From positions 288,001 through 352,000 of the forward strand of contig CBDCQT010000013.1 of assembly GCA_965220745.1 (NCBI GenBank): 64,000 nucleotides of DNA. Reading direction: 5' to 3'. The stretch comes from Alphaproteobacteria bacterium. Its GTDB lineage: Bacteria > Pseudomonadota > Alphaproteobacteria > UBA828. Position numbers and translations under genes: made by a program. Of the stretch, positions 1 through 7,283 are shown in pieces (position 1 is the first letter of the stretch; every line of letters begins with the position of its first letter). The notes below the pieces were generated by a model, which did not search any database, was not told where the DNA came from, and saw nothing but the letters and a program-made list of their open reading frames with translations.

Positions 1-2347
<2,347 letters not shown>

Positions 2348-2382
2348 CTGTGAGCCAAACGAGAATCTAGGGGAGAACTGCC

Positions 2383-2781
2383 ATGACGCTAACGCTCGAC
2401 GAAGCCAACCGCGTTGCCGAGGGCGCAATGGAACACGCGCGCAGTATCCATATCCTGGTCTGCGTCGCGGTCTGCGATGCCGGCGGGAAGCTGGTTTCGT
2501 TCCAGCGCATGGATGGCGCGATCTGGGCCGCCGTCTACGGCAGCCAGGGCAAGGCCGCCGCGTCCGCCGCCTTCGGCCGGCCGAGCGGCGACCTCACCGA
2601 GAGGGCGGACCATCCCACCTTCCGCGGCATCGTCGCGAAAGACGGCGGCCACATGATCCTGGGCCGCGGCGCCGTGCCCATCGTGCGCGACGGCCAGGTG
2701 ATCGGCGCGTGCGGAGTCGGCGGCGGCACCGGCGAGGAGGACGAGGATTGCGCGCGCGTCGGCGTCGCGCGAATTGAGTAA
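2383..2781 (+). CDS. GlcG/HbpS-family heme-binding protein
   Basis: 132 aa; VAVCDAGG..RMDGA..KA...GAVPI...IGACGVGGG..EDE pattern; GGAGA RBS. Confidence 0.85.
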   Translation: MTLTLDEANRVAEGAMEHARSIHILVCVAVCDAGGKLVSFQRMDGAIWAAVYGSQGKAAASAAFGRPSGDLTERADHPTFRGIVAKDGGHMILGRGAVPIVRDGQVIGACGVGGGTGEEDEDCARVGVARIE

Positions 2782-2827
2782 GGGGATAGGGCGGCACCGC
2801 CGTCGCACGCATTCAGTAAGTAGGGTC

Positions 2828-2960
2828 AGCGCGCGGGACGCTATCGCGCCGCCCGGCCTGACTCTTCTTGTTCCCTCAGACGCCGGGGCGCTGCCTCATT
2901 CATTTCCCTCAGACGCCGGGCGCTCGCTCCGCTCGCTTGGCTTACGCGCTACGCGCGCGG
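2828..2960 (+). repeat. Dispersed GC-rich repeat, copy 1 (with internal duplication of TTCCCTCAGACGCCGGG)
   Basis: AGCGCGCGGGACGCTATCGCGCCG...TTCCCTCAGACGCCGGGCGCTCGCTCCG..CGCTTGGCTTACGCGCTACGCGCGCGG recurs at 5136 and partly, inverted, at 35126-35245. Confidence 0.85.
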
Positions 2961-3428
2961 AGCTTTGCGACTAATGCGGTTCTGTTTCCGGCGACATCTC
3001 CATTGGTAAGTCGAAGCACCGTAATATCGAGCTTGGCGCAATCTTCGTCTGACCTGCCTCCGTCGATCCGCGTCCAGAAGGCCCACACGCGGAAACCGAA
3101 GGCAACTCAATAGCCGATCTGTGAAGCCTAGAGACTGACGGGCGATCGCCGAGGCCGCCATTGTCTTGAGTGCGCCTCTGATTCCCCAAGAATTCTTCGG
3201 AAACTAAACCTCTAGGAGCCAGTTTCCTGATTACATGATCCGGTGATTGGAGCGAAGCTCACGCCATGAGGGCACCCGAGCCGCGGAAAAGGTCCACAGC
3301 TTTTCCCCAGCGGAAAGCGGGAGCACCGGGGAAAGTGATTTCCACAGCGATCCGATCGCGGGGATACCGTCAAGTCCGACAGTTCCCCCGTTGCACAGCA
3401 CGTTGTCCAAAGGCAATGTGGGAATGGG

Positions 3429-3505
3429 TGGTGGGCCCGGCGAGACTCGAACTCGCGACCTCAACCTTGGGATGGATGCGCTCTATCCGGCTGAGCTACG
3501 GACCC
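3429..3505 (-). tRNA. Atypical tRNA: anticodon CCC (Gly) in an Arg-like body; may be a pseudo-tRNA
   Basis: Reverse strand GGGTCCG TA GCTC AGCCGGATA GAGC G CATCC ATCCCAA GGTTG AGGTC GCGAG TTCGAGT CTCGC CGGGCCC A CCA folds as a 77-nt cloverleaf with encoded CCA. Confidence 0.85.
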
Positions 3506-3512
3506 ACCACCC

Positions 3513-3542
3513 ACCATATCCACCTCGCGCTCGGCGCGTCAA
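3513..3542 (-). promoter_or_regulatory. Sigma70-like promoter of the tRNA
   Basis: TTGACG-N18-TATGGT on the minus strand, 7 nt upstream of tRNA G1. Confidence 0.55.
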
Positions 3543-3766
3543 CGCTACCCCTAGCGGTAATCCCCGTGGATAGCGGGGAAAGCATGGTGAATTTCGGGGA
3601 AAGCACTAAATCTTCGGCTAGATGACCGGCGCGTTGGCTAGTTGGGCGTACAAGTCCCGGAAAAAGTGGGGGTGCCCGGCGCCGGGCCGCTGCGCGGCCC
3701 GGTCCCAATTTGGCAAACACCTCGACTGTTGCCGCGCGGCGCGCATCGGCTCTCGCTCCCCTTTCT

Positions 3767-3786
3767 CGTCATGCCCGGACTTGATC
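3767..3786. repeat. REP-like palindrome, left part, interrupted by the IS
   Basis: CGTCATGCCCGGACTTGATC is the exact reverse complement of 5107-5126. Confidence 0.8.
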
Positions 3787-5045
3787 CATTGCTGTCCGGT
3801 TTAGATTTTGGCGAAGGGGATTTGGAGTTGGTCATGGGTTTGTGGCTCATCGGGCGGCGGTTCGAAGAGGTCGGTGAGCGCCCGGCGCTGGAAGGTCGTC
3901 TTGGCGACGAGGCGGGCGATGGCCTGGAGGCCGAGCCGGGTTCCGGTTCCGATCTGCGCCAGCCGCAGCAGCAGGTAGGCGATCAGCGCGGTGACGATCT
4001 GGATGCGCACGGCATTCTCGCTGGTGCCGAGGAAGTGCCGGATCTTCAGGTTCTGCTTGATCCACTTGAAGAACAGCTCGACCTGCCAGCGCCGCTTGTA
4101 GAGCGCCGCGATCTCTTCGGCTGGGGCATTGAGGTCGTTGCTGACCAGCATGATCTCCCTGCCGCTGTCGATGCGCACGGTGACCAGACGCACCGGCTTG
4201 TCGAAGGGGTTCTGGCGGCTCGCCGCCAGGCGCTTCGACAGCAAGGCGACGCGGTCGGCCACGACCGGGCCGTCCGGCTTGACCGGGCGGGTCTCGATCA
4301 GGCTTGTGGGCGAGTTCTTCTTCAGCCGGGTGACGAAGCGGCTCCCCTTGGCGTCGATGTCTGCCCAGAAGGCGAAGTCGTAATAGCCCTTGTCGAAGAC
4401 GTAAGTCGCGCCGGGCTCGATGGGGAGGCGCTTGGCCGGCGTGATGTCGTTGACCCTGGCCGAGGTCACGGCAAAGCAAACGGGCGCATCTGCGTCCGGG
4501 TCGTAGACCACGTGCAGCTTGACGGCACCGTCGACCTCCCAGCTCTCGATCCGCTTGCCAACCAGGACCCGGGTCGCATCGACGAGGCGCAGCATCTCCC
4601 GCCCGCGCTGGCCCGCAGATGCGCCCAGCCGGGCGACCAGGGCCTCGAGTACGTCCTCGAACAGGGCCGCCGGACGTACCCGGTTGGCATCCGCGAGCGT
4701 AGACCGCCGCACCGGCGCCAGACCCAGATGGGCATGGACGCCCGGAAAGCGTTCCAGCGCACCGACCGCCTCGCGCAACGAGCGCGAGCCCGACAGCTGG
4801 GCGAACACCATCGCCTGGAACTGGCTCCACGACGAAAGGCGCCGGACCCGGTAGTCCGCTCCGTGGCGCTCTGCCAGCTTGTCGAAGCGCCAGCGCGGAA
4901 ACGCCTTCATCAGTCCGCCGAAAATCGTATCCTGGTAGGGCATGGCTTGGGCTCCATTGCGAGCTTCGATTCAACAGGTCTTGCAAAAACCAAGTTGAAT
5001 CCAAGCCATGCACCTTGTCTACCCAAGCTAAACCGGACAGCAATG
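3787..5045 (-). mobile_element. IS4-family insertion sequence (1259 bp)
   Basis: Perfect 18-bp terminal inverted repeats CATTGCTGTCCGGTTTAG (3787-3804) / CTAAACCGGACAGCAATG (5028-5045) enclosing a transposase. Confidence 0.95.
3801..4943 (-). CDS. IS4-family DDE transposase
   Basis: 380 aa; DAT, VFDKGY, and YKRRWQVELFFKWIKQ (YREK motif); N-terminal RSTLADAN typical of this IS4 group. Confidence 0.95.
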   Translation of the reverse strand: MPYQDTIFGGLMKAFPRWRFDKLAERHGADYRVRRLSSWSQFQAMVFAQLSGSRSLREAVGALERFPGVHAHLGLAPVRRSTLADANRVRPAALFEDVLEALVARLGASAGQRGREMLRLVDATRVLVGKRIESWEVDGAVKLHVVYDPDADAPVCFAVTSARVNDITPAKRLPIEPGATYVFDKGYYDFAFWADIDAKGSRFVTRLKKNSPTSLIETRPVKPDGPVVADRVALLSKRLAASRQNPFDKPVRLVTVRIDSGREIMLVSNDLNAPAEEIAALYKRRWQVELFFKWIKQNLKIRHFLGTSENAVRIQIVTALIAYLLLRLAQIGTGTRLGLQAIARLVAKTTFQRRALTDLFEPPPDEPQTHDQLQIPFAKI

Positions 5046-5126
5046 GGCTTGACCCGGCCATCCACGTTTTCGTTTCTTTACAGTGTGTTGTGGAGAGAGA
5101 TGCCCGGATCAAGTCCGGGCATGACG
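5046..5126. repeat. REP-like palindromes: right remnant plus an inverted full copy
   Basis: GGCTTGACCCGGCCATCCACG (5046-5066) and GATGCCCGGATCAAGTCCGGGCATGACG (about 5099-5126). Confidence 0.8.
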
Positions 5127-5135
5127 ATGAAAGGA

Positions 5136-5267
5136 AGCGCGCGGGACGCTATCGCGCCGTCCGGGCCTGACTCTTTCAGTTCCCTCAGACGCCGGGCGCT
5201 CGCTCCGTTCGCTTGGCTTACGCGCTACGCGCGCGGCGCATGCGCGCCGTCCGGGCCTGCGGCCCGG
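5136..5267 (+). repeat. Dispersed GC-rich repeat, copy 2
   Basis: Near-identical to 2828-2960 without the internal duplication; its 3' tail CGCGCCGTCCGGGCCT..GGCCCGG is shared with the 35.1-kb copy. Confidence 0.85.
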
Positions 5268-5594: not shown

Positions 5595-7283
5595 TCAGCC
5601 GTAGCGGTAGTCGCGCCGCGCGCCCTCGGGCGTGATCCAGCCCTCGCTCAGGTCTTCGGCGATCATGGCTGGGTCGCGCTCGGCCGGATCGCCGTAGCCG
5701 CCCGCGCCCGGTGCGATCAGGCGGATGCGGTCGCCGGGGCCGATAGTCGCGTTGGCGAACTTGCTGGGCGAGGTCTTGCCGAAGGCCTCGGTGAAGGGGC
5801 GCCAGCCGTTGCCGCCGGCCTGCTGGTAGAAGAGCCCGCCCGTCGCCCCCGCGCCGCCCCCGAGCAGGCCCCAGGGGCGCATCTTGTGACGGTCCGAGAC
5901 GGAACTCACGGTGATCTCCGTGTCCATGCAGCGCAGGATCTTGGCGAGCGCATGGGCGCCCCGGAACTGGCCGGGCCCGGCGGTGTCCGGCTGCAGCGCG
6001 TATTCCTCCACCATCCACGGATAGCGCACCTCGAACACCTCGATCGGCACCATGCGCGAGTTGCCGTTAATGCAGTTGATGACCTCGTTGCCGTCGGCGA
6101 AGGGTCGCCCGCCCCAGGCCGCGCAGGTGAAGTCGTAGCAGACCACGTAGTCGCCGGAGCGCGGGTCGGTGGCACCGAACAGGAAGTTGCTGTGGGTGCC
6201 CGCGTCGGTGGCGAAGGCGCGATCCGGCACGCATTGCGAGAGCGCCGCGATGATGGTGTAGGCGATTCGGATGTGGGTCTCGGTGTTGCCGCCGACGCAG
6301 GTCGCCGGATAGTCCGCGTTCACCATGGAGCCGCCGGGCGCCACGATCTTGATCGGGCGGAAGCAGCCCGAGTTCTTGGGGATCGACGGGTCGGTGAGGT
6401 GCAGGATCGCGTTGTAGGCCGAGGACCAGGCGACCGCGAGCACGGCGTTGATCGGACCCTGCGCTTGCGCATCCGAGCCGCCGTAGTCGACCACCACCTC
6501 GTCGCCCTGGACGTGGACATCGACGTGGATCTTGTACGGGCGGTCCTCGATGCCGTCGTCCTCCATGTAATCTTCGAAGCTGTAGACCCCGTCGCTGAAG
6601 GCGGAGAGCTCGGCCCGCATGCGCGATTCGGCGTAGTCCATCAGGTCGTCGGCGGTCTTGCGGAAGGTGTCCGGCCCGTACTTCTCGATCAGCGCGGTGA
6701 GGCGCGCGGCGCCCACGTCGACGGCGCTGATGAGGGCGCGGAAGTCGCCGTAGTTGGTGCGGGGCGTGCGGTAGTTGGCGAGCAGCAGCTTCCACACCTC
6801 GACCACGTCCTCGCCGTGCTCCTTGATCTTGACCGGGGGCACGCGCATGCCCTCGTGGAAGATCTCGGTGGCCTCGCCGGCGAAGCCGCCGGGCACCATG
6901 CCGCCCACCTCCGCCACGTGGCCGATGGCGACGGCGTAGCCCATGAGCTCGCCCCGGTAGAACACGGGCTTGATGAAGGTGTGCTCGGGCGTGTGCATGC
7001 CGCCCCGGTAAGGGTCGTTGTGGACGATGACGTCGCCTTCCTCGACCTCGTCGTGCGGGATCTCCTGGGCCGAGGTCTGCAGGACCAGCGGCAATCCGCC
7101 GATCTGCGAGGGGTTGAACTCGGCAACCCCGATCAGGTCGCCCCGTGTGTTGCCGAGACCGCAGGTGAAGTCGAGGCCCTCGTTGAAGATGGTCGAGTAG
7201 GAGGTCTTCATCATCGTGATGCCCATCTCGCGGCAGATGGACACCATCGTGGAATCGATGATGTTCATGGTGACCATGTCCAT
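5595..7283 (-). CDS. Hydantoinase B/oxoprolinase family protein
   Basis: 562 aa; YSTIFNEGLDF, HNDPYRGGMHTPE, GHVAEVGG, PGAGGYGDP. Confidence 0.9.
   Translation of the reverse strand: MDMVTMNIIDSTMVSICREMGITMMKTSYSTIFNEGLDFTCGLGNTRGDLIGVAEFNPSQIGGLPLVLQTSAQEIPHDEVEEGDVIVHNDPYRGGMHTPEHTFIKPVFYRGELMGYAVAIGHVAEVGGMVPGGFAGEATEIFHEGMRVPPVKIKEHGEDVVEVWKLLLANYRTPRTNYGDFRALISAVDVGAARLTALIEKYGPDTFRKTADDLMDYAESRMRAELSAFSDGVYSFEDYMEDDGIEDRPYKIHVDVHVQGDEVVVDYGGSDAQAQGPINAVLAVAWSSAYNAILHLTDPSIPKNSGCFRPIKIVAPGGSMVNADYPATCVGGNTETHIRIAYTIIAALSQCVPDRAFATDAGTHSNFLFGATDPRSGDYVVCYDFTCAAWGGRPFADGNEVINCINGNSRMVPIEVFEVRYPWMVEEYALQPDTAGPGQFRGAHALAKILRCMDTEITVSSVSDRHKMRPWGLLGGGAGATGGLFYQQAGGNGWRPFTEAFGKTSPSKFANATIGPGDRIRLIAPGAGGYGDPAERDPAMIAEDLSEGWITPEGARRDYRYG

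Follow-up and report, generated by a model that had tools for sequence, protein, structure and literature searches.

INTRODUCTION

To our knowledge, natural tRNAs whose anticodon contradicts the body that carries it are rare, and the manner in which they spread is mostly unknown. One such gene lies in the stretch of DNA analyzed here, 64,000 nucleotides of contig CBDCQT010000013.1 (positions 288,001 to 352,000) from assembly GCA_965220745.1 of an alphaproteobacterium; this whole stretch is called the window below, and its first nucleotide is position 1. The gene specifies a 77-nt tRNA (the window tRNA) with a glycine anticodon, CCC, and a non-glycine body, and it stands within what very probably is the remnant of a transposon of the IS1595 family. 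IS1595-family insertion sequences with passenger genes are reportedly known, from ISfinder and from work by Siguier and colleagues in 2009. The elements that we describe resemble that family by their transposase (DDE_Tnp_IS1595 and zinc ribbon domains), by terminal inverted repeats starting with GGGG.TTATA, by an 8-bp target duplication (in an intact element on contig C5 of the same genome), and by extra genes between the transposase and the right end; they differ from it in that the passenger is a tRNA gene. A literature search, outside of which lay most subscription journals and supplements, found no description of tRNA genes as IS1595/ISXO2 cargo.

Bacterial tRNAs of hybrid identity that have been described include tRNAProX with its synthetase ProRSx, Sec/Cys hybrids, and allo-tRNAs (PMC11415595 and PMC5389517, here and below for the parts consulted). 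Like the window tRNA, tRNAProX of Actinomycetes is a natural bacterial tRNA whose body and anticodon disagree, but it has a dedicated extra synthetase, whereas the genome studied here has one arginyl-tRNA synthetase (ArgRS) and one glyQ, and the carrier is a transposon (PMC11415595). The consulted part of that paper names no Arg/Gly pairing among dual-identity tRNAs. Mukai et al. (PMC5389517) described irregular tRNAs from Acidobacteria and other bacteria, which are rare, have mismatched anticodons, and are located near toxin-antitoxin genes, one of them overlapping a transposon-related open reading frame. Two Sec-like tRNAs in our survey, which adjoin IS1595 transposases (loci L116 and L169), are similar to these allo-tRNAs, whereas the window tRNA has 7 bp in the acceptor stem and 5 bp in the T stem (7/5) and not the 8/4 or 9/3 arrangement (PMC5389517). 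The consulted part of that paper makes no mention of a cargo position between inverted repeats of the IS1595 family.

Compared with ordinary bacterial tRNAs, the window tRNA has in common with tRNA-Arg the D-loop GGAUAGAGC with A20, C35, a purine discriminator (A73), a length of 77 nt, and a 5-nt variable loop; it departs from tRNA-Arg by C36, which makes the anticodon that of a Gly codon, and by an Ile-like acceptor strand, GGGUCCG and not GCRCCCG. It also differs from the tRNA-Arg of its own host by A73 (G73 in the host), by a U29-U41 mismatch, and by A32. With tRNA-Gly(CCC) it shares the anticodon, G1-C72, and G3-C70, but it has A73 in place of U73, G2-C71 in place of C2-G71, and a long Arg-type D-loop in place of AAUGGUA/AGGGGUA.

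RESULTS

A complete tRNA gene with anticodon CCC

ARAGORN found a single tRNA in the whole window, with anticodon ccc (Table 1). Its match to the Rfam tRNA model RF00005 (3432 to 3505, minus strand; 58.5 bits, E value of 4.6e-10, gathering score of 29) spans the full model, from position 1 to position 71. The acceptor stem consists of G1-C72, G2-C71, G3-C70, U4-G69, C5-G68, C6-G67, and G7-C66 and is followed by A73 and an encoded CCA. The D arm reads GCUC/AGCCGGAUA/GAGC, with an A at the position-20 site. In the anticodon stem (C-G, A-U, U.U, C-G, C-G), U29-U41 is the mid-stem pair and the sole internal mismatch of the molecule, and the anticodon loop is A32-U33-C34-C35-C36-A37-A38. The universal tRNA bases are all kept (U8, A14, G18G19, G15/C48, U33, T54-T55-C56, A58, and G53-C61). 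The initial annotation, made from the sequence alone, had listed the complete 77-nt cloverleaf, the encoded CCA, the CCC anticodon, the A20-type D-loop, G2-C71, and A73, and all of these could be read again. Annotation pipelines will call this gene tRNA-Gly.

That annotation had also considered that the true anticodon might be CCT, misread in the assembly. C36 corresponds to position 3468, the first G of a plus-strand GGG. In each of four public runs, all from one sample, a separately assembled contig spans 3000 to 3791 with 0 differences, at a modest read depth of 4 to 24x over the tRNA locus; CCC is thus not the slip of one assembler. The sample behind the runs is probably the source of the assembly itself, and the runs hence give no independent support.

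As a separate observation, the 8 nt preceding the tRNA (UGGGUGGU) are complementary to A73-CCA and the next 4 nt (3425 to 3439 against 3499 to 3513), so that the acceptor stem could reach 15 bp in a precursor that retains the leader.

TABLE 1 Features of the window around the tRNA gene, and mismatched tRNAs found at IS1595 loci of congeneric genomes (bodies and anticodons of the latter parsed manually from the sequence)
Location	Strand	Feature	Basis or remark
2828..2963	plus	REP-like dispersed repeat replacing the left part of the transposon	Repeat search; second copy at 5136-5254
3059..3117	plus	Conserved block A: last codons and stop of the gene for a small basic (AT-hook-like) protein	Sequence match
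3118..3633		Variable cargo cassette; tRNA antisense to the transposon genes	Slot between block A and the right repeat
3429..3505	minus	tRNA gene, 77 nt, anticodon CCC	ARAGORN, Rfam RF00005, direct reading of the sequence
3513..3542	minus	Sigma-70-like promoter site TTGACG-N18-TATGGT	Consensus scan, 9/12 matches
3566..3605	plus	Two 19-nt direct repeats, GTGGATAGCGGGGAAAGCA and GTGAATTTCGGGGAAAGCA	Repeat search; 24-63 nt upstream of the -35 hexamer
3634..3658		Degenerate right terminal inverted repeat TTGGCTAGTTGGGCGTACAAGTCCC	17/19 core bases (3636-3654) match the repeat of relatives
3759..5066	minus	Neighboring IS4-family insertion sequence (DDE_Tnp_1 + DUF4372 transposase, 3801-4943)	Pfam
L140, L141		Arg-like body, anticodon GAC	
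L168		Arg-like body, Gly anticodon UCC	U-U mismatches at 28-42 and 29-41
L179		Leu-like body, anticodon UGG	
L157		Ser-like body, ochre anticodon UUA	Genome G008
L116		Two tRNAs: Ser-like with AGG; Sec-like with GAC	
L175		Ser-like body, anticodon GUU	
L169		Sec-like tRNA, anticodon GCG	
L135, L147		U73 scaffold, anticodon GGA	L147 is a second copy
L140		Second tRNA: U73 scaffold, anticodon GGC	

The gene occupies the cargo slot of a truncated transposon

Searches with the cassette flanks of the tRNA, in the genome itself and in genomes of the genus, matched only block A, a block next to the right repeat, and REP-like repeats. Of the small-protein gene, the window retains only the C-terminal end ..PSIRVQKAHTRKPKATQ*, in the last 55 bases, with the stop codon ending at 3113; the full protein, read in a relative (L079), has 65 aa and ends in ..IRVQKTHTRKPKAAQ*. 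The second conserved block (3624 to 3662) is the right terminal inverted repeat of a 5- to 5.7-kb transposon, six copies of which were located in relatives (two in G009 and one each in G008, G004, G013, and G003), four of them being fetched whole (both from G009 and those from G008 and G004). Block A and the 19-nt repeat core match all six; for block A the identity is 86 to 95% to the G009, G008, G004, and G013 copies over the full block and 85% to the G003 copy over the first 41 nt. The repeat core GGCTAGTTAGGCGTATAAG, contained in GGGGACTTATACGCCTAACTAGCCAA at the left end, is inverted at both ends of the four whole copies (L095 to L098), all of which encode an IS1595 transposase (PF12762 and zinc ribbon; E values of 1e-33 to 1e-39). 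The ends of L095 and L096 are flanked by direct repeats of about 8 bp, as judged by eye, consistent with a target-site duplication.

Between block A and the right repeat, the six copies have a slot of 250 to 570 bp, the content of which is unrelated from copy to copy. The cassette that fills this slot in the window and contains the tRNA has a G+C content of 58.7%, versus 67% for the window. Neither tblastn nor Pfam detected an IS1595 transposase (PF12762) between positions 1 and 9000, and no left terminal repeat was found at the locus or elsewhere in the genome. Across the class, the inverted-repeat core was present in 5 of 401 genomes, including the genome under study (G000), and the element is rare outside the genus. 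From this arrangement we conclude with considerable confidence that the window tRNA was cargo of an IS1595-family transposon that has since been truncated.

Mismatched tRNAs recur at IS1595 loci

The same genome has a second, intact example. A 2.5-kb IS1595-family transposon (G000:C5:22951-25475, equal to L106:4952-7476) is bounded by 31-nt inverted repeats and has the 8-bp duplication CGTTGTTC. It encodes a transposase and a 45-aa protein homologous to the small basic protein, and it carries, on the strand opposite to the transposase, a 99-nt tRNA (C5:24291-24389; Rfam score of 60.9 bits). This tRNA has a Leu-like class II body with A73-CCA and a 28-nt variable arm, and it bears the Pro anticodon UGG. 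No relative of it was found in the 40 related genomes at an E value of 1e-5; L179 holds a distant analogue (72% identical), and plasmid homologues of the C5 transposase are all below 46% identity. Near the right end of the C5 element, there is also a 16- to 17-nt tandem repeat.

The survey was then extended to the genus, in which 21 genomes gave about 155 PF12762 matches; 90 of these were sampled, with flanks of 1.5 kb on either side for 30 loci and of 2.2 kb for 60 loci; the 60 skipped most multicopy identical family members and the loci already examined. Rfam tRNAs were present at 11 of the 90 loci. Ten of these hold 12 tRNAs that are noncanonical in anticodon or structure (Table 1), and one holds two ordinary tRNAs (Asp and Val). 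The loci with noncanonical tRNAs come from congeners G020, G004, G006, G008, G011, G003, and G019. The tRNA lies inside inverted repeats in L168 (perfect 30-nt repeats; intact element at 554 to 3703), L175, L147, and the C5 element, as well as in the acidobacterial L038; motif searches placed one element end for L116, L140, and L141, and inverted-repeat searches within 1.5 kb on either side gave no clear ends for L135, L140, L141, and L116. Total tRNA numbers were compared in five congeners: they amount to 49 in G004 and G020, the genomes with three RF00005-scoring cargo tRNAs each, and to 46 in the other three.

Two loci from Acidobacteria, L038 (a Bryobacterales metagenome-assembled genome) and L071 (a metagenome contig), combine an Arg-like tRNA with anticodon CCC and an IS1595 transposase (tblastn and Pfam); the tRNA stands 1.6 to 2.2 kb downstream of the transposase gene, which is on the other strand. 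The L038 element has 26-nt inverted repeats, and its further cargo encodes IrrE/M78-HTH and DUF4411 proteins; in L071, HEPN was matched weakly (E value of 0.004, below the cutoff of Pfam). At both loci, an inverted partial copy of the 5' half of the tRNA (37 to 38 nt, 79 to 81% complementary) is found about 100 nt from the tRNA (L038:5851-5887 versus 5990-6026; L071:3460-3497 versus 3591-3628). In a transcript that reads through both, this copy and the tRNA could base pair.

A third unusual tRNA of G000, at C10:520540-520630 (L107:4541-4631), is Ser-like; its anticodon loop, CCUUAAAA, has 8 nt, and its T-loop, CTCGAAG, is degenerate. ARAGORN reports it as "tRNA-???", and it has no Rfam match. 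Together with its flanks, it is 90.7% identical over 344 bp to L157, where the Ser-like tRNA with anticodon UUA is intact. The L157 tRNA adjoins an IS1595 transposase, whereas none is near the C10 copy.

As judged from their sequences, IS1595-family transposons of the genus and IS1595 loci in Acidobacteria are repeated carriers of tRNAs whose anticodon and body do not match. Among these, Arg-like tRNAs with Gly anticodons, as we parse them, occur at IS1595 loci in two phyla, inside the repeats in L168 and L038. The cargo position of the window tRNA and the recurrence of mismatched cargo tRNAs argue against its being a simple pseudogene, an outcome that the initial annotation had envisaged.

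Identity elements favor ArgRS over GlyRS

The genome (4.82 Mb, 13 contigs, 67% G+C, 5.18% contamination) encodes tRNAs Arg-CCT, -TCT, -CCG, and -ACG and Gly-TCC, Gly-GCC, and a canonical Gly-CCC (GCGGGUG.., U73, C2-G71; C13:61562-61635), so that the Arg-CCT and Gly-CCC genes for which a check had been proposed are both there. The tRNAs of the genome closest to the window tRNA are Arg-TCT (62/77), Arg-CCG and Ile-GAT (59 each), Arg-CCT (58), and Gly-GCC (56), and at least 15 of the 77 positions differ from any of them. The D-loop motif GGATAGAGC is restricted to the window tRNA and the four host Arg tRNAs (5 of 50 ARAGORN calls), and the D arm is identical to those of Arg-CCT and Arg-TCT. The acceptor stem, GGGUCCG/CGGGCCC-A73, is Ile-like, and the best full-length matches in plasmid and phage collections are Ile tRNAs (about 80%). 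In the same collections, positions 8 to 65 are 84.5% identical to gammaproteobacterial Gly-GCC genes, and the host Gly-GCC has the same sequence in the 3' half of its anticodon stem. With Ile, Gly, and Arg likenesses in conflict, overall similarity cannot assign an isotype, and the identity elements must. The body had first been likened to tRNA-Arg(CCT), with which it shares the D arm but not the acceptor stem.

According to Table 1 of the review by Giege and Eriani (PMC9976931, in the part consulted), the bacterial Arg identity set is A/G73, A20, C35, and U/G36, the text of the same review giving U/C36; the bacterial Gly set is U73, G1-C72, C2-G71, G3-C70, C35, and C36. The window tRNA has A20, C35, and A73 of the Arg set, with a C at position 36 that is outside the U/G36 of that table. 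From the Gly set it has C35, C36, G1-C72, and G3-C70, with A73 for U73 and G2-C71 for C2-G71. In the host, all four Arg tRNAs have G73 and all three Gly tRNAs have GCGGG../U73. The genome has one ArgRS gene (C13, at about 388.6 kb; PF00750, in two pieces of one 628-aa frame) and one glyQ (C7:91525; PF02091), so that the host glycyl-tRNA synthetase (GlyRS) is of the alpha2beta2 type; a second, dedicated ArgRS or a glyQ paralogue was not found in the genome, nor was a synthetase gene near the window tRNA. On paper, then, the published rules favor ArgRS over an alpha2beta2 GlyRS, in line with the initial view of a body that lacks both U73 and C2-G71 and suits ArgRS better than GlyRS. The codon concerned, GGG, is used 16.5 times per 1,000 codons and makes up 17.6% of Gly codons (1,460 long frames with high GC3).

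Counterparts in other genomes

A BLAST search with the 77 nt of the tRNA in 40 related genomes, 20 of them congeneric, returned only Arg and Ile tRNAs, the best match being Arg-CCG (85% over 73 nt). The proposed check for the same tRNA in related genomes thus gave no counterpart, and none was found in the plasmid and phage collections either. We also scanned for the combination of an Arg-type D-loop and a UCCCA anticodon loop, requiring exact GGATAGAGC, TCCCA, and GGTC. Matches numbered 16 in 185,579 species (one genome each), 1 among viral contigs, and 30 among metagenome contigs. No close relative is among these 47 loci, the best reaching 61/77 with a pattern that itself fixes the CCC anticodon. 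ARAGORN called 18 ccc tRNAs in these loci, 17 of them with an Arg-type D-loop, which indicates that such Arg-like/CCC tRNAs recur, very rarely, in unrelated taxa.

Transcription signals

The promoter that the initial annotation had noted upstream of the tRNA was found again (Table 1), its -10 hexamer ending 7 nt before position 1. The scan yielded this 1 site between 2900 and 3800, against a mean of 0.3 in shuffles of the same region, which makes the match weak on its own. The same hexamers with the same spacing, TTGACG-N18-TATGGT, precede the transposon-borne Ser-like tRNA of L116. No terminator-like site was found between 2900 and 3800.

Several cargo tRNAs have sequence motifs in common just upstream. 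A GA(T/C)AAATAG motif ends 4 to 5 nt before position 1 in L135, L140 (second tRNA), L168, and L169, and TAAGGTCGC directly precedes position 1 of both the Ser-like tRNA of L116 and the Arg-like tRNA of L140. This placement suggests that the cargo tRNAs with these motifs may be transcribed with almost no leader. In the window, a GGGGAAAG motif related to the two 19-nt direct repeats lies at 3336 to 3358, and GGGGAAAG or GTGGA(A/T)A motifs recur on both sides of the tRNA (3296 to 3358 and 3566 to 3605); repeats of this type may be protein-binding sites.

Signs of reduced function

A32 and U29-U41, which had been singled out as weak points, are present, and two measures agree with that assessment. 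First, the Rfam score of the window tRNA ranks 40th of 45 in the genome, and no other tRNA with a short variable arm scores as low. Second, its cloverleaf has the largest energy gap to the minimum free energy (MFE) structure, in which the D arm and the anticodon loop pair in a competing hairpin; other comparable tRNAs of the genome have gaps of 0 to 5.7 kcal/mol. We used the gap and not the shape of the MFE structure, several genuine tRNAs of the genome also having a non-cloverleaf MFE. The anticodon stem of the canonical tRNA-Gly(CCC) of the genome is topped by a G-A mismatch, which leaves a 4-bp stem. A paper on 4-bp anticodon stems (PMC13092985) was considered as a parallel for the window tRNA and set aside, its consulted part treating terminal pairs and not an internal U-U.

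DISCUSSION

Our best explanation, which we give about an even chance of being right as a whole, is a structurally complete tRNA of hybrid identity, with a Gly anticodon, a non-Gly body, and an Arg-type D-loop, that would have reached the genome as the passenger of an IS1595-family transposon of which only the right end survives. Its own sigma-70-like promoter would drive transcription, with the start at position 1 or immediately upstream of it. If anything charges it, this would be the single ArgRS, given the presence of A20, C35, A73, and G2-C71, with only position 36 wrong; the alpha2beta2 GlyRS would be less apt, U73 and C2-G71 being missing. Competing with the canonical tRNA-Gly(CCC) for GGG codons, the charged tRNA would cause a low level of Arg incorporation there, and its activity would be damped by U29-U41, A32, and the hairpin that buries the anticodon. 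Taken by itself, the proposal that the tRNA is charged with Arg and decodes GGG is conceivable from its identity elements, but we think it unlikely.

By analogy, the window tRNA seems somewhat more apt to belong to a selected class of mobile mismatched tRNAs than to stand apart from one. This is suggested because mismatched tRNAs recur in intact, recently moved elements, because two phyla have Arg-like tRNAs with Gly anticodons at IS1595 loci, and because the Ser-like tRNA of L116 has the same promoter hexamers. Identity to the other Arg-like cargo tRNAs is low, so that "class" here means analogy and not demonstrated homology. We propose more tentatively, and short of thinking it probable, that IS1595-family transposons are vehicles for a repertoire of tRNAs with the features of missense and nonsense suppressors and that this cargo is selected. 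The cargo tRNAs would then act as mobile modules for recoding or mistranslation, or else as RNA partners of toxin-like cargo, and tRNAs with an Arg body and a Gly anticodon would have been recruited more than once.

Several observations weigh against an active hybrid tRNA brought in as selected cargo. In relatives, the cargo slot is free of tRNA genes in all six copies of this transposon type, and the other Arg-like/CCC loci (17 were counted among the 47 pattern loci) have no IS1595 transposase in the sequence examined. The window tRNA is nearer to host Arg-TCT (62/77) than to the Arg-like cargo tRNAs of L168 (58/77, or 75%), L141 (52), and L140 (49), and it is a singleton, so that covariation lends no support. 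C36 is not the U/G36 of the tabulated Arg set (U/C36 in the text; PMC9976931, consulted part), and with GGG being common, efficient decoding of Gly codons as Arg would be harmful. The Rfam score is 9 to 12 bits under those of the four host Arg tRNAs, and the cloverleaf lies 8.0 kcal/mol above the MFE structure, the worst value among 32 comparable tRNAs of the genome. The transposon is dead at this site, so the tRNA may merely not have decayed yet.

This last point leads to the rival that survives best, doubtful to our mind but to be reckoned with, namely that of an inert relic: a nonfunctional or barely functional leftover in a dead transposon, without useful expression, uncharged, and bound to decay. 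The element has lost its transposase, its left repeat, and most of the small-protein gene, the tRNA is without a counterpart and has the structural weaknesses listed above (U-U mismatch, A32, lowest short-arm Rfam score, and largest energy deficit), and another odd tRNA of the genome, the Ser-like one at C10:520540, has plainly decayed. Yet the universal bases, the CCA end, and the promoter-like site are intact, comparable tRNAs are carried by intact transposons, and Arg-like tRNAs with Gly anticodons are found at IS1595 loci of two phyla, within the repeats in L168 and L038. The adjacent block A, still 95% identical to the copy of a relative, indicates that little time has elapsed either way.

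The tRNA could instead be a nontranslational RNA that serves the element or its cargo, as a decoy or antidote against a toxin that targets tRNAs or as the structured 5' end of an RNA running antisense into the transposon genes, which we regard as rather unlikely. Consistent with such a role are the other cargo found with Arg-like/CCC tRNAs (the IrrE/M78-HTH and DUF4411 proteins of L038 and, below the Pfam cutoff at an E value of 0.004, the HEPN match of L071) and the inverted partial copies of the tRNA 5' half about 100 nt away at both of these loci. In addition, the tRNA converges on the transposon genes in 7 of 12 mapped tRNA-bearing loci (the window, C5, L116, L141, L157, L168, and L038), the scan found no terminator-like site after the window tRNA, and Mukai et al. 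suggested that some irregular tRNAs near toxin-antitoxin genes are nontranslational (PMC5389517, consulted part). However, Pfam detected no toxin-like gene beside the window tRNA, the tRNAs of L135/L147 and L140 diverge from the transposase, and the full set of tRNA features is kept, CCA end and T-loop included.

We consider it improbable that the gene is a harmless additional glycine tRNA, charged by GlyRS through C35 and C36 and adding to GGG decoding. Such a role would agree with C35, C36, G1-C72, and G3-C70, all in the bacterial Gly set (PMC9976931, consulted part), with the 84.5% identity of positions 8 to 65 to gammaproteobacterial Gly-GCC genes, and with the 3' half of the anticodon stem, which equals that of host Gly-GCC. 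The U73 and C2-G71 of that set are replaced by A73 and G2-C71, though, the host GlyRS is of the alpha2beta2 type as judged from glyQ, all three host Gly tRNAs have GCGGG../U73, and a canonical Gly-CCC is already in the genome.

The origin first proposed for this tRNA, a chromosomal tRNA-Arg(CCU) paralogue with one in-place U36-to-C change, now looks very remote. The D arm, the same as in Arg-CCT and Arg-TCT, and the retained A20 speak for it. With Arg-CCT, however, only 58 of 77 positions are shared, Arg-TCT being the closest tRNA; the acceptor, anticodon, and T stems and the discriminator differ; no Arg tRNA locus of the genome has related flanks; the gene sits inside a transposon remnant; and searches of the 20 congeners found no orthologue at this or another site. 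Least credible is an assembly or sequencing error that hides a CCT or CCG anticodon, as might be feared in a genome that seems metagenome-derived (13 contigs, 5.18% contamination) and has a depth of 4 to 24x at the locus, since the contigs of all four runs (one sample, probably the source) agree and the remaining tRNA body is also unlike every Arg tRNA.

Our preferred reading of a hybrid tRNA carried in by a transposon links one mismatched tRNA to a specific vehicle, which in this genus also carries a dozen others and, in a second phylum, similar tRNAs. Should such tRNAs be active, a potential for mistranslation, stop-codon read-through, or codon reassignment could pass between genomes by transposition, which bears on how changes of the genetic code start and on what genomes tolerate. 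As LeuRS and SerRS do not read the anticodon, cargo such as the Leu-like/UGG tRNA of C5 and the Ser-like/UUA tRNA of L157 would be the most probable to misdecode. If they are nontranslational, an RNA function would be linked to transposon cargo such as toxin-like genes. Intact elements with perfect repeats exist (G000:C5:22951-25475 and L168:554-3703) and make the question testable. On the practical side, ARAGORN missed the Leu-like/UGG tRNA of C5 entirely.

Neighboring features

Upstream of the tRNA region are hydantoinase/oxoprolinase and HbpS-like genes. The REP-like repeat has dozens of copies in the genome, one of which adjoins the host Arg-CCG gene on contig C3. The neighboring IS4-family element has five further copies in the genome, four of them 99 to 100% and one 92% identical, and the run contigs end near it, at 3758 to 3771. 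Finally, in another genome of the same class (G040), an Arg-like tRNA with the D-loop GAUAGAGC, G73, and the Lys anticodon CUU (L028:2336-2412) is located 760 bp after a normal Arg-CCU gene and looks like a tandem duplicate with an altered anticodon.

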